NCBI RefSeq assembly: GCF_026626685.1
Contig: NZ_JAPNJX010000021.1
Span: forward strand, 41,329-105,328
From: Nannocystis sp. SCPEA4
Lineage (GTDB): Bacteria > Myxococcota_A > Polyangia > Nannocystales > Nannocystaceae
Direction of reading: 5' to 3'
Length of the DNA stretch: 64,000 bases
The position numbers and the translations under genes are program-made. Below are positions 21,099 to 39,068 of this stretch, one piece after another; positions within the stretch are counted from its first letter, which is position 1, and each line of letters begins with the position of its first letter. Under the pieces are notes generated by a model. That model did not search any database. It saw only the letters and a list, made by a program, of their open reading frames with translations, and had not been told where the DNA came from.

Positions 21099-22520
21099 CT
21101 ACTTCAGCGCGCCGCGATGGGCGTGCGGTTCCGGCGGAACGGGGGGCATCCCCGCCTGCGGAGCGACGCGGTACTCGTTGAGGCGGTACTGGATCTTGCG
21201 CGGCGAGATCCCGAGGATCTTGGCCGCCTTGCTGGTGCTGCCGCCGACGTGCTCGAGCGTCCGCAGGATGGCGTAGCGCTCGATCTCTCGCAGCGACGCG
21301 CCGGGGATGACCGGCGCGGAGTCGTCTCCGCGCATCTTCGACATCAGCTCGCGCGGCAGGTCGCGCGGCTCGACCTCGGTGCCGCGCGCGAGCACCACCG
21401 CCCGCTCGACGCTGTTCTCGAGCTGACGGATGTTGTCGGGCCAGTCGCAGCCGAGCAGCACGCCGAGCGCCCGCTCGCTGAAGCCGACCACCGGGCGGTG
21501 CGCCTGGGCGGCGAACTGGCGCAGGAAGTACATCGCCAGCAGCGGGATGTCGTCCCGGCGCTCGCGCAGCGACGGCATGCGCAGGCTGACGACGTTGAGG
21601 CGGTAATAGAGGTCCTCGCGCAGGCGGCCGTCCTGCTTCGCCGCGCCGATCTCGTGGCTCGTGGCCGCGATCACGCGCACGTCGGCGTGCAGTGGTTCGC
21701 TGTCGCCGACGCGACAGAACCCTCGCTCTTGCAGGAAGCGCAGCAGCGCGGCCTGGACCCCGTGCGGCAGCTCGTCGACGTCGGCGAGGAAGAGCGTGCC
21801 ACCGTCGGCCTCGCGCAGCCGACCCTCGCGCAGCACGGCGCCGCCGTCGCGCACGCCGAACAGCTCGCGCGCGCAGGCCTCGTCGGTGAAGCCGCTGCAC
21901 TGCAGGCTGACGAACGGGCCGCGTCGCCCGCTCCAATGATGGATGAGGCGCGCGAGGTGTTGCTTGCCGGTGCCGCGCTCGCCGGTGACGAGCACCGACA
22001 CCGGCGAGTCGGCGACCTGCCGCGCCAGGCCGAGGAGGTCGCGGAACACCTTCGACTGGCCGATCACGCCGGTGCGCTGGTCGGCGCGCTGACTCTCGAG
22101 CGCCGAGCGCAGATGCCTCGCCTCGCGCTGCAGCGCGCGGTGACGCAGGACCCGCTGCAACACGATCAGCAGCTGCGGAAGATCGACGGGCTTGCTCAGG
22201 TAATCGTCGGCGCCGAGATGGAGCGCCTCGACCGCGCCCTCGACCGAGCCAAAAGCGGTCATCACGACGACAGCGACGTCAGGGTAGATTTCACGGAGCT
22301 TGGATATGAGCTCCAGACCGTTGAGACCCGGCATCTTCACGTCGGTGATCACGACGTCCGGTTCCCACTGATCGACCCGTCCGAGCGCCTTGTAACCGTC
22401 GGCGGCGGACTGGACCTCATAACCTTCCTCTCGCAGCAACTCGCTCAACGCTGATCGAGCGCTCGACTCGTCATCGACCACCAAAATTCGGGTCGGCCTG
22501 GGCTCTTCAAAGTTCGTCAT
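21099..22520 (-). CDS. Sigma54-dependent response regulator (NtrC family)
   Basis: Receiver ILVVDDE...DVVITDVKMPGLNG. AAA+ sigma54-interaction domain with GERGTGKQHLA and the GAFTGA-equivalent. C-terminal Fis-type HTH. Confidence 0.85.
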   Translation of the reverse strand: MTNFEEPRPTRILVVDDESSARSALSELLREEGYEVQSAADGYKALGRVDQWEPDVVITDVKMPGLNGLELISKLREIYPDVAVVVMTAFGSVEGAVEALHLGADDYLSKPVDLPQLLIVLQRVLRHRALQREARHLRSALESQRADQRTGVIGQSKVFRDLLGLARQVADSPVSVLVTGERGTGKQHLARLIHHWSGRRGPFVSLQCSGFTDEACARELFGVRDGGAVLREGRLREADGGTLFLADVDELPHGVQAALLRFLQERGFCRVGDSEPLHADVRVIAATSHEIGAAKQDGRLREDLYYRLNVVSLRMPSLRERRDDIPLLAMYFLRQFAAQAHRPVVGFSERALGVLLGCDWPDNIRQLENSVERAVVLARGTEVEPRDLPRELMSKMRGDDSAPVIPGASLREIERYAILRTLEHVGGSTSKAAKILGISPRKIQYRLNEYRVAPQAGMPPVPPEPHAHRGALK

Positions 22521-22583
22521 AGGCGGTACCTCCGCGGGCTTCGCCTACTCTGCGGGCGGAAGATGCGCGGGTGTAATGCATAC

Positions 22584-22601
22584 TTTGCGCGCTCGCGCAA
22601 A
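22584..22601. promoter_or_regulatory. Operator-like inverted repeat TTTGCGCG-N2-CGCGCAAA
   Basis: 8 bp perfect arms in the 160 bp gap between the gspN end and the regulator start. Confidence 0.25.
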
Positions 22602-22678
22602 CCCGCGACCCCCGCCGGGATCGTTTCTCCTATTGTTGCGGGGTTTTCCCCGCTGGCACGAGATCCGCAATCCCCCGG

Positions 22679-36591: not shown

Positions 36592-37646
36592 TGGATCGTG
36601 ATGTCCTTGGTGATCGACTCGCCCTTGCGCTCAATCGTGACCTGAAGGTTGCTGGCGCTGCGCATCTTGGTCAAAAGGCCCATGACCTGGTCGACCGACT
36701 TCAGCTCGATGCCGTTGACCGAGGTGAGGAGGTCGCCGTTCTTCATGCCGAGCAGCTTGGGCAGGCTGCCCGGGCGGATCCCGTAGAACTTGAAGCCCTT
36801 GGTCTCGCCGTCCTTGATCGACGGCATCACCCGCGCCTGCTTGGTCAGCGCGGCCGGGTTGGCGAACAGGCTGTCGATGAACATGCGATCGACGGTGCAC
36901 GAGTTCTCGCTCTCGCACTTGATCGCGTCCTCGGCCCCGGGGATGGCCCCGGCCGCCGGCGCCGCTTCTTCCTTCTTCTCGGCCACCTGCAGCGGCTTGG
37001 CGGTCGGCTTCGGCGGCTCGACGCCGAGCTCGATGTACTCGAGCGCGCCGCCGTTCTTGACGTGCACGAGGCTGCGCTCGACGCTGACGAGGTAGACGCC
37101 GGTGCGGATGCGATCGCCGGGCCAGTACGGGCCGACGCTGCCGTCCTCCTCGTCGCGGATGGTCGCCCACGAGTACTCGGGCATGTTGGTGGTCTCCATC
37201 GTGGCGATGAGCCGCAGCGGCTGCGTGCACGGGCCCTCGCCGGGCTGCTTGCCGGAGACCTGCGGCAGCTCGCCGGGGCCGAGGTCGGGCACCGCGGCGG
37301 GGCCACCCGTGGGCGACTCGGGGGTGACGACCTTGGTGCAGGTCGGGCAGAACAGGTTGAGCGAGAGGATCGTCTGCGTGACCTTGTTGCGGTCGGCCGC
37401 GCTCGGTCCACGCGAGGGGCTCGACATCATCCGCGGGTTGATGAGCGGCTTGTCCTCCTCGTCCTCCTCGTCGACCTTGGCCTCGCCGTCGGTGTCCGTG
37501 CCCGTGGCGACCGCCTCGTCCTCGCCGGCGTCGTAGATGTACGACGTGCCGAGCCAGGTGGTCAGCGCCGACGCGGCGAAGGCCGCAGCGACGCTCACGC
37601 CGAGCGCCTTGACGACCCAGAAGTGCTGCTTGAAGACGGCTTCCAT
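36588..37646 (-). CDS. gspC: Type II secretion protein GspC (C-terminal PDZ)
   Basis: N-terminal TM. C-terminal PDZ-like GIRPGSLPKLLGMKNGDLLTSVNGIEL. ATGA overlap with gspD. Confidence 0.7.
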   Translation of the reverse strand: MEAVFKQHFWVVKALGVSVAAAFAASALTTWLGTSYIYDAGEDEAVATGTDTDGEAKVDEEDEEDKPLINPRMMSSPSRGPSAADRNKVTQTILSLNLFCPTCTKVVTPESPTGGPAAVPDLGPGELPQVSGKQPGEGPCTQPLRLIATMETTNMPEYSWATIRDEEDGSVGPYWPGDRIRTGVYLVSVERSLVHVKNGGALEYIELGVEPPKPTAKPLQVAEKKEEAAPAAGAIPGAEDAIKCESENSCTVDRMFIDSLFANPAALTKQARVMPSIKDGETKGFKFYGIRPGSLPKLLGMKNGDLLTSVNGIELKSVDQVMGLLTKMRSASNLQVTIERKGESITKDITIQ

Positions 37647-37655
37647 CGCTCTCCG

Positions 37656-39068
37656 CTAGTGGATGACCTCGTCGCTCTCCGACTCGACGCGCGGCGCGGG
37701 CTCTGCAGGCTGCGCGCCGGACTCGAGCTTGCGGTAGATCGTGCGGGTGGCGATGCCGAGCAGGTCGGCCGCCAGCCGCTTGTCGCCGCGCGTGAACTTT
37801 AGCGTCTCCGTGATCATCCGGCGCTCGACCTCCTCCAGCGGGGTCCCGACGGAGAATGTGATCTGACGCCCATGGCCGGCCTGCGGGTCGCGCAGCTCGG
37901 GCGGGAGGTCGTGCTCGTCGACGAGACCGCCCCGGCACAGCACGACCGCGCGCTCGACCGCGTTCTCCATCTCGCGCACGTTACCCGGCCAGCCGTAGTT
38001 GCTCATGCGATAGAGCGCGGCCTCGGTGAAGCCGGACACCGGCTTGCCGTGCTTGCCGGCGAAGATGCGCAGGAAGTGGTCGGCCAGCAGCGGCACGTCC
38101 TCGAGGCGGTCGCGGAGCGGGGGCACGCGGATCGGGATGACGTTGATGCGGTAGAAAAGATCCTCGCGGAAGCGCCCGGCCTTCACTTCTTCGGACAGGT
38201 CGCGGTTGGTGGCGCAGATGAGCCGCACGTCGACCTTCGCCATGCGACCGCCGACCGGCTCGATCTCACCCTCCTGCAGCGCGCGCAGCAGCTTGACCTG
38301 GATGTGCAGCGGGATCTCGCCGATCTCGTCGAGGAACAGCGTGCCGGTGTGCGCCTCGAGGAAGCGACCCTCGCGGGCCCGCACCGCGCCGGTGAAGGCG
38401 CCCTTCTCGTGGCCGAACAGCTCGCTCTCGAGGATCGACTCCGGCAGCGCGGCGCAGTTGGTCGGCACCAGCGGCCGGGCGGCGCGCGGGCTGTGCTGCT
38501 GGATGTAGCGGGCGAACAGCTCCTTGCCGGTGCCGCTCTCGCCGAGCAGCAGCACGGTCGCCGACGAGCCCGCGGCCTGGCGCGCCATGTCGAGGGCGGC
38601 CCGCAGCACCTGGCTGTTGCCGACGATCGGCCGGTTGGTCGCGGCCGCCAGCTGGGCCTTGAGCTCGCGGTTTTCAGCGACCAGCGCGTGCTTGTCGAGC
38701 GCCTTCTGGACCGCGGCGATGATCGCCGCGCGCTTGAGCGGCTTGGAGATGAAGTCGTAGGCGCCGAGCTTCATCGCCCCGACCGCGTTCTCGACGGTGC
38801 CGTAGGCGGTCATCATGATCACCTCGACCTCGGGCGTCAGCGCCTTGACCGCCTTCAGCAGGTCCTCGCCGGTCATGCCCGGCATGCGCAGGTCGGTGAT
38901 CATGACCTGCACCGGCACGGTCCGCAGGATCTCGAGCGCCTGCTGTCCGCTCGAGGCTGTCCGAACGGCCATGTTCTCCTTGGCCAGGACCTTCTGCAGC
39001 GCGTCGAGGATGCTGGGCTCGTCGTCGACGACGAGGACGGTGGGGGTACGGGCTGTCGTGGTCATGGG
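37656..39068 (-). CDS. Sigma54-dependent response regulator (NtrC family)
   Basis: Receiver VLVVDDE...[15 protein letters not shown]+ [13 protein letters not shown]...GAFTGA. Ends 9 nt upstream of gspC. The upstream in-frame extension has AT-rich third positions, so the start is set at ATG 39068. Confidence 0.85.

Follow-up and report, generated by a model that had tools for sequence, protein, structure and literature searches.

Organization of the type II secretion locus

The 64,000-nucleotide stretch of Nannocystis sp. SCPEA4 DNA analysed here (the window; contig NZ_JAPNJX010000021.1, G+C content about 70%) carries the twelve gsp genes, gspC to gspN, of a type II secretion system (T2SS), together with the genes of two NtrC-family response regulators, which we designate R1 and R2. 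Genes were called on third-position GC (GC3) and then translated. Fourteen minus-strand genes, all in one direction, occupy positions 21099-39065; by increasing coordinate they are R1, gspN to gspC, and R2. A first-pass annotation of this DNA had described twelve co-directional gsp genes with 4-nt overlaps at gspM/N, gspL/M, gspI/J and gspC/D, an NtrC-type regulator ending 9 nt before gspC, and a second regulator 160 nt downstream of gspN, the two regulators being seen as "bracketing" the operon. The twelve genes from gspC to gspN are indeed all on the minus strand, the four overlaps of 4 nt are present with the start codons chosen, and the R2 stop precedes the gspC ATG by 9 nt (0-71 nt in relatives). 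The second regulator is placed as described, with a measured distance of 158 nt, rather than 160 nt, between the gspN stop and the R1 ATG. From R2 through gspN every intergenic gap is at most 40 nt. As the gaps are this short and the gene order is conserved, R2 is taken as the first gene of the operon, and R2-gspCDEFGHIJKLMN is best read, on the arrangement of the genes, as one 13-gene operon. The description of an operon bracketed by two regulators has to be abandoned, since R2 is the operon's own first gene. In our reading the locus is the single T2SS of this Nannocystis species, and it is of the phylum-typical (delta/Leptospira) type.

When species genomes were scanned with GspG, the window proved to be from Nannocystis, and its proteins are 89-100% identical to those of N. 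radixulma, most of them at least 96%. Synteny was assessed by tblastn of all window proteins against fetched loci, complemented by gene-context look-ups. The order R2-C-D-E-F-G-H-I-J-K-L-M-N recurs in six Nannocystis species and in three more divergent Nannocystis metagenome-assembled genomes (MAGs). The same R2-to-gspN order is found in Myxococcales MAGs (loci L011, L012 and L017) and in a Kofleriaceae MAG (L013); the R2 homologue that immediately precedes gspC in these MAGs is about 61% identical. Gene context gave an enhancer-binding protein (EBP) followed by gspC-D-E in Plesiocystis pacifica (L030), a Polyangia MAG (L031), another Nannocystaceae MAG (L036) and Enhygromyxa salina (L037). 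In all Myxococcota lineages sampled, an EBP gene precedes gspC. Another genus of Nannocystaceae also has the full R2-gsp-R1 arrangement, because L036 shares one contig with L032, a locus in which an R1 orthologue follows gspN.

By sequence, R2 is a complete sigma-54 EBP

R2 (37656-39065, minus strand) is an NtrC-family sigma-54 enhancer-binding response regulator. Judged by the curated cut-offs of the Pfam and NCBIfam family models, which were used throughout, it contains Sigma54_activat (PF00158, 227.5 bits), REC, AAA_lid_14 and HTH_8 domains. In the alignment, the Walker A motif, the GAFTGA loop and the Walker B motif (DE) are all intact, and GAFTGA is kept in 119 of the 120 closest R2 homologues. 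The receiver domains of the two regulators are alike: Response_reg scores 110 bits in R1 and 107 bits in R2, and both proteins have the motifs VVDDE, ITD(V/L)(K/R)MPG, MTA and SKP, which provide the acidic pocket, the phospho-acceptor Asp and the conserved Thr and Lys. The recognition helix IATRTIYR is identical among the aligned R2 homologues. R2 is 78-79% identical to its homologues in Enhygromyxa, Plesiocystis and Pseudenhygromyxa, a value that exceeds that of most gsp proteins.

A conserved candidate enhancer and promoter footprint upstream of R2

The palindrome TGCCA-N3-TGGCA (TGCCAAAATGGCA, 39190-39202) is a candidate enhancer (upstream activating sequence) located some 98-100 bp upstream of a candidate -24/-12 element. 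Its generalized form, TGYCA-N3-TGRCA (TGYCANNNTGRCA), has a single match in the 64 kb window, against 0.08 expected; in related loci nearly all of its occurrences are ahead of the R2 homologue, frequently as a pair of copies separated by 30-40 bp. The palindrome columns are invariant in an alignment of eight Nannocystaceae (alignment A1), as are the columns of a second upstream block, GAC-N4-TGACA (39168-39179, minus strand), which overlaps the GACAAT "-10" of a sigma-70-like match discussed below. The candidate sigma-54 promoter itself, GGGACCCCGAATTGCA (GG-N10-GC; 39090-39105, minus strand), has its 3' end 24 nt before the R2 ATG. In alignment A1 the proximal promoter has no invariant columns other than GG, C and TTGC, and these have the exact -24/-12 spacing.

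Stronger sites occupy the corresponding place in other lineages, 20-35 nt ahead of the start codon. The canonical TGGCAC-N5-TTG[T/A] is found there in L011, L012, L013, L017 and L031. Near-canonical sites were recorded as TGGCACCAGGCTTGTA in L011, TGGCACCGGGCTTGTA in L013, TGGCATCAGGCTTGTA in L017 and TGGCACCGCGGTTGAA in L031, and also as TGGTCCAGGCCTTGCT in Plesiocystis (L030) and CGGTGTCATACTTGCT in Enhygromyxa (L037). Taken by itself, the window sequence does not make a convincing case for the R2 sigma-54 promoter; the support for it is the conservation. The palindrome and the predicted -24/-12 element together have the geometry of an EBP-activated sigma-54 promoter. With R2 at the head of the operon, autoregulation is the likeliest and most economical interpretation.

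Sigma-54 sites were scored with a position weight matrix (PWM), a simple matrix made from the published consensus. It disclosed no internal sigma-54 promoter of at least 5 bits in the 300 nt upstream of gspD, gspE, gspF, gspG, gspI, gspJ, gspL, gspM or gspN. A further element ahead of R2, TGGCTCCAGGAAATGCC (approximately 39143-39127, minus strand), was rejected as a promoter, as it has GG-N11-GC spacing and its conservation does not extend beyond Nannocystis proper. Followed by TAGAAT (39122-39143, minus strand), it looks like the canonical sigma-54 sites of the other lineages with one extra base between GG and GC. A block rich in A and T, AATCATTC-N3-TTT, separates the candidate enhancer from the promoter and is a possible IHF-type bend site.

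A probable partner kinase adjoins R2 homologues in other lineages

The first-pass annotation had also noted that no cognate histidine kinase is encoded in the window, and had proposed a search for the partner elsewhere. The absence is confirmed by Pfam scans of the GC3-supported open reading frames (ORFs), which gave no histidine kinase, and by a kinase profile run against the six-frame translation of the window, which gave no match at E <= 10. In L011, L013, L017 and L031 a HAMP-HisKA-HATPase_c kinase gene immediately precedes the R2 homologue in the same orientation, and the sigma-54 site is in the interval that separates them. The Nannocystaceae loci (the window, L030, L036 and L037) have unrelated genes at this position; in the window and in L036 they encode a methylase-like protein and an acyl-CoA dehydrogenase. 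The kinase thus appears to have been displaced from the gsp locus in Nannocystaceae. Because it adjoins the R2 homologue in lineages outside this family, the two-component reading of R2 is sound. A profile built from four kinases, used in a protein search, retrieved only a large family of proteins of about 900 residues whose named members are mostly from Kofleriaceae and Myxococcales, with no named Nannocystis protein among the 120 matches listed. L031 has a second pair of kinase and EBP genes (713-3675, minus strand; the EBP has GAFTGA), which is divergent, upstream of the kinase-EBP-gsp unit and beside exbB/exbD.

R1 resembles atypical EBPs and lacks the GAFTGA loop

R1 (21099-22520, minus strand) has REC, Sigma54_activat and HTH_8 domains, with a Sigma54_activat score of 157 bits compared to 227 for R2. 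The low score is due to the deletion of the GAFTGA loop and to an altered Walker B motif. The R1 proteins of the window and of L002-L008 are without the loop (ELFGVRDG----GAVLREGR), as are the orthologues that adjoin gspN in the Nannocystaceae MAGs L032, L034 and L035, and GAFTGA is missing in 106 of the 120 closest R1 homologues. The Walker B motif reads LFLADVDEL, not LFLDEIGE, in all Nannocystis orthologues ("AD" for "DE"); in the orthologues of L032, L034 and L035 it is intact or near-intact (LDE/LDD). Public records label R1 "sigma-54-dependent". Since the loop is lacking in all gspN-adjacent orthologues, the sequences give no ground to assume that R1 acts through sigma-54, and the label is corrected here in view of the deleted sigma-54-contact loop. 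Likewise, the earlier assignment of both regulators to the sigma-54 enhancer-binding class stands for R2, a complete EBP with an intact GAFTGA, and fails for R1.

By its sequence features R1 matches the description of the atypical GAFTGA-less EBPs of the VpsR kind. With this group (VpsR, NtrX, HupR, TyrR and PhhR; PMC6158489) it shares the REC-AAA+-HTH architecture, the absence of GAFTGA and a non-consensus Walker B. VpsR, which lacks GAFTGA and has ND in its Walker B, works with sigma-70 (PMC6158489); the "DE" of the Walker B is thus replaced by "ND" in VpsR and by "AD" in R1. None of these proteins is orthologous to R1, whose NCBIfam matches are all far below the cut-offs (the best are AtoC, 376 bits against 714, and NtrX, 346 bits against 600).

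R1 is predicted to be a separate transcription unit. Its leader/promoter region (22521-22605, minus strand) includes a perfect palindrome, TTGCGCGCTCGCGCAA (22585-22600), that is unique in the window; no copy was found near the R2 promoter. About 85 nt of this leader are 100% identical in six Nannocystis species, the distal spacer being variable (alignment A3), whereas the R1 proteins of the same six species differ by 5-8%. We considered the leader as a structured RNA and rejected this possibility: there is no Rfam family anywhere in the window, and with a fold z-score of -1.0 the leader is no more stable than shuffled sequence. A terminator-like hairpin from the consensus scan (21038-21051, minus strand) is located 48 nt past the R1 stop, in a region whose total of such matches is not clearly above the shuffled expectation. 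R1 is probably a phosphorylation-controlled, sigma-54-independent DNA-binding regulator acting at the palindrome in its own leader.

Orthologues of R1, with 62-67% identity, directly follow gspN in L032, L034 and L035, and the adjacency of gspN and R1 is seen only within Nannocystaceae. No EBP follows gspN in L011, L012, L013 or L017, and an Enhygromyxa relative has GAFAGA and is not beside gsp. The gene downstream of R1 varies: Nannocystis has an 810-aa ORF there, and L032, L034 and L035 have a gene for an RsmE-like methyltransferase. The position kept beside gspN in Nannocystaceae suggests a functional tie to secretion. The 810-aa ORF (18536-20968, minus strand), directly downstream of R1, has a GC3 of 0.96, no Pfam match, and an N-terminus that is conserved in other Nannocystis loci.

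The spacer between gspN and R1 also contains a near-consensus sigma-54-like site, TGGCACGAGATCCGCA (22654-22669, plus strand), which is directed antisense into the gspN 3' end. At 12.5 bits on the PWM it ranks second among all sites of the window. In six Nannocystis species its TGGCA[C/T]G and GC[A/T] elements hold their spacing while the spacer bases vary. There is no plausible plus-strand ORF downstream of it. This site could be the promoter of an antisense RNA, a sigma-54 "parking" site, or a chance occurrence. The hairpin GCGGGG-AAAA-CCCCGC after gspN was considered as the operon terminator and rejected, as it is not conserved in other Nannocystis species.

Comparison with the Myxococcus xanthus system

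T2SSs are common to Myxococcota (PMC10196010), and that of Myxococcus xanthus delivers MYXO-CTERM proteins to the cell surface (PMC11980579). In this organism gspD is essential (PMC12475490), and attempts to delete T2SS genes failed (PMC6434023). The M. xanthus gsp cluster (MXAN_2502-2515), with GspD being MXAN2514 and GspK MXAN2505 (PMC3222651), encodes the same delta-type T2SS as the Nannocystis locus. The nla4 gene, MXAN_2516 (PMC11980068), is two tags beyond gspD, which matches the position of R2. Nla4 is an orphan NtrC homologue without an adjacent kinase (PMC3892784), and R2 is likewise an orphan. R2 is therefore the probable counterpart of Nla4, an equivalence that comes from locus-tag arithmetic and not from sequence comparison. 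Inactivation of nla4 severely impairs growth, the mutants being viable and slow-growing (PMC7910581). None of the papers available to us mentions both nla4 and type II secretion.

M. xanthus offers an experimental precedent for the control of myxobacterial gsp genes by sigma-54 and an EBP, with another EBP, another promoter position and another binding motif. There a 10-gene T2SS unit is transcribed from a sigma-54 promoter, GGGCGCG-N4-TTGCA, that lies before MXAN2511 and is bound by the DNA-binding domain of Nla28 (Ma et al. 2022, PMC9765219). This promoter is internal, upstream of a gspG-like gene, whereas no equivalent site precedes the Nannocystis gspG. Nla28 has its own kinase, Nla28S, and its binding motif consists of tandem 8-bp repeats, as opposed to the candidate R2 motif TGYCA-N3-TGRCA. 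The degenerate -24 region of the Nla28 promoter does resemble that of Nannocystis (GGGACC-N5-TTGCA). In a computational regulon survey, the sigma-54 targets predicted for Myxococcia, and less so those for Polyangia, were enriched in T2SS clusters of orthologous groups (PMC12316311).

Proposed control of the T2SS operon by R2

On balance we lean towards an operon that is led by the orphan sigma-54 EBP R2 and is autoregulated, R2 and the T2SS together, with R1 as a separate atypical EBP unit. A kinase encoded elsewhere in the genome would phosphorylate R2, and phosphorylated R2 would bind to the TGCCA-N3-TGGCA palindrome upstream of its own gene. ATP hydrolysis by R2 would then open the sigma-54 promoter, whose GG-N10-GC element is 24 nt from the ATG of R2. 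The outcome would be more transcription of R2 and of the entire T2SS, that is, positive autoregulation, and a sigma-70-type promoter on top of this may supply basal expression. The proposal in the first-pass annotation that the T2SS is under sigma-54/two-component control accordingly survives in the part that concerns R2, where it agrees with the complete EBP, the conserved palindromes, the -24/-12 element and the kinase in relatives, and is lost in the part that concerns R1, which is without GAFTGA.

Several observations weigh against autoregulation by R2 and sigma-54. The R2 -24/-12 site is weak, at 5.5 bits on the PWM and with GGGACC as its -24 region, and 32 sites elsewhere in the window reach at least 8 bits. 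A strict search for TGGCAC-N5-TTGC with at most one mismatch found nothing in the region; the sole strict match of this kind is outside of it and is no better than chance. The consensus scan also gave a sigma-70-like match, TTGGCA-18-GACAAT (39195-39166), that overlaps the palindrome, whose right arm could be a sigma-70 -35 box, so that a dual or a sigma-70-only promoter ahead of R2 is possible. In M. xanthus, the published T2SS sigma-54 promoter is internal and bound by Nla28, not Nla4 (PMC9765219), and nla4 mutants are viable (PMC7910581) despite the essential gspD (PMC12475490). Because of the latter two facts, Nla4-type control is not the sole route to gsp expression in M. xanthus. The locus-tag basis of the equivalence between R2 and Nla4 belongs among these points. 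In another explanation, one or more sigma-70 promoters drive the T2SS, R2 is a co-transcribed passenger with targets elsewhere (stringent-response genes are the reported targets of Nla4 in M. xanthus), and GG-N10-GC is a decayed relic. The weak PWM score, the missing strict consensus match and the TTGGCA-18-GACAAT element speak for it. The T2SS of M. xanthus is essential (PMC12475490, PMC6434023), as would suit constitutive expression, and the nla4 phenotype was ascribed to (p)ppGpp changes (PMC7910581). A relic is at odds, however, with the purifying selection in Nannocystaceae on GG and TTGC and not on the bases between them. The "-10" of the sigma-70-like match has changed to GACAAG or GACAGC in L007-L009 and L030, and the other lineages have canonical sigma-54 sites and paired palindromes. 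We consider sigma-70 control with R2 as a passenger rather unlikely.

Two accounts of R1 compete within this picture. R1 may be an unrelated neighbour that controls no genes but itself or distant ones, its place beside gspN being inherited order without function; to this we give somewhat less than an even chance. The separate upstream region of R1, 158 nt in length, includes a fully conserved leader and a unique palindrome, the gene is followed by a terminator-like hairpin, and its adjacency to gspN is confined to one family. That the gspN side has been retained while the gene order around R1 is otherwise fluid is harder to accommodate. Alternatively, R1 might be a dedicated second regulator of the T2SS. 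It would then either repress or activate the operon independently of sigma-54, or enter mixed rings with R2 as a subunit without GAFTGA and damp it; the bracketing by two regulators would in this case be functional. The adjacency kept across Nannocystaceae at 62-67% identity while the downstream gene changes, and the GAFTGA deletion common to all gspN-adjacent orthologues, are consistent with such a role. Hetero-oligomeric EBPs are reported in M. xanthus, to judge by the title of Volz et al. (2012). This role is nevertheless unlikely in our estimation, given that the R1 leader palindrome recurs neither near the R2 promoter nor elsewhere in the window, that R1 is absent downstream of gspN in L011, L012, L013 and L017, and that the Enhygromyxa relative is not beside gsp.

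A broader extension of autoregulation by R2 would have the Nla4-type orphan EBP as the ancestral autoregulated sigma-54 activator of the T2SS across Myxococcota, contributing to the unusual sigma-54 growth requirement of myxobacteria and to the slow growth of nla4 mutants, with R1, a paralogue without GAFTGA, recruited beside gspN as a modulator in Nannocystaceae. T2SS expression that depends on sigma-54 and an EBP could contribute to that requirement, because gspD is essential (PMC12475490) and deletion of sigma-54 is lethal in M. xanthus, the only organism for which this has been reported (PMC12316311, citing Keseler and Kaiser 1997). As a whole this extension is speculative, and we regard it as improbable.

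Sigma-54 control of myxobacterial T2SS genes has already been published (PMC9765219, PMC12316311), and the Nannocystis locus is a further member of a known arrangement. New at the level of annotation are the Nla4-type EBP that leads the operon in every lineage sampled, the conserved enhancer/promoter footprint, the kinase adjacent to it in sister lineages, and the recognition of R1 as an atypical GAFTGA-less EBP. The general picture of how T2SSs or EBPs work is unchanged. The myxobacterial T2SS is of importance in that it places MYXO-CTERM surface proteins and in that slime secretion needs GspD.

Components of the secretion apparatus and flanking genes

The products of gspD, gspE, gspF, gspG, gspJ and gspK score above the Pfam cut-offs. 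The first gsp gene, gspC (36588-37646; this and the following gsp genes are all on the minus strand), encodes a delta-type GspC with a PDZ match (NF041515 GspC_delta, 231.7 bits, cut-off 150). It is followed by the secretin gene gspD (34171-36591), whose Secretin, Secretin_N and GspD N0 domains are above cut-off, the ATPase gene gspE (32283-34151; T2SSE 460.8 bits and MshEN) and the platform-protein gene gspF (31035-32276; T2SSF 209.8 bits). The major pseudopilin is encoded by gspG (30562-31008; T2SSG and N_methyl). Among the minor pseudopilins, the gspH-like (29509-30522) and gspI-like (28734-29507) products have the prepilin N-methylation motif (N_methyl) and match the GspH and GspI models only below threshold (TIGR01708 gspH, 42 bits, cut-off 80; TIGR01707, 27.7 bits); the former is long and has a low-complexity insert. 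GspJ (28012-28737) scores 28.4 bits with T2SSJ (cut-off 28) and has N_methyl, and GspK (26632-28002) scores 33.6 bits with T2SSK_1st and 74.8 bits, below the cut-off of 130, with NF037980.

The protein at the GspL position (24828-26591) is an analogue composed of an N-terminal PilM/actin-like domain (PilM_2 73.2 bits, FtsA; TIGR01175 pilM below cut-off) and a C-terminal extension; it has no match to Pfam T2SSL. The gspM-like gene (24226-24831) matches T2SSM only weakly, at 19.8 bits for a cut-off of 27.8, and its position and 4-nt overlaps are conserved. GspN (22679-24229) is of the Leptospira/delta type (TIGR04411, 178.5 bits, cut-off 50) and has a Pro/Glu/Gly-rich tail. A change of GC phase at the gspN 3' end (22640-22800) was examined as a possible frameshift; this was rejected, as the tail is rich in Pro/Glu/Gly/Gln, with high first-position GC, and is in the same frame in L001. 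There was no Peptidase_A24-type match for the prepilin peptidase GspO/PilD among the ORFs scanned across the window, and none in the gsp cluster; its gene is presumably located elsewhere in the genome.

As in the Gsp/Pul/Eps systems of Gammaproteobacteria, the core C, D, E, F, G, H, I, J, K, M and N-like genes are in one co-directional cluster. The Nannocystis cluster differs from these systems by the PilM/actin-like fusion at the GspL position, by GspC and GspN of the delta/Leptospira families (NF041515, TIGR04411), by the absence of gspO from the cluster, and by the EBP gene that leads the operon. Within the 22000-40000 region the G+C content of the gsp operon is 0.67-0.70, compared to 0.72-0.77 in the flanks; GC at codon positions 1 and 2 is lower, and GC3 is still 0.94-0.98. 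The lower G+C content looks like a matter of amino-acid composition rather than of foreign origin, the latter being disfavoured because the operon is conserved in all sampled Myxococcota lineages.

Farther from the operon, a 1969-aa ORF (10349-16258, plus strand) has only C-terminal HEAT/Armadillo repeat matches. Upstream of R2 lies the gene for the DNA-methylase-like protein (39234-40589, minus strand), which has a weak N6_N4_Mtase match and long Ala/Pro/Arg-rich tails, and upstream of both is the gene for the acyl-CoA dehydrogenase (40696-42603, minus strand). The same pair precedes the R2 homologue in L036, with an extra VanY gene between the pair and R2.

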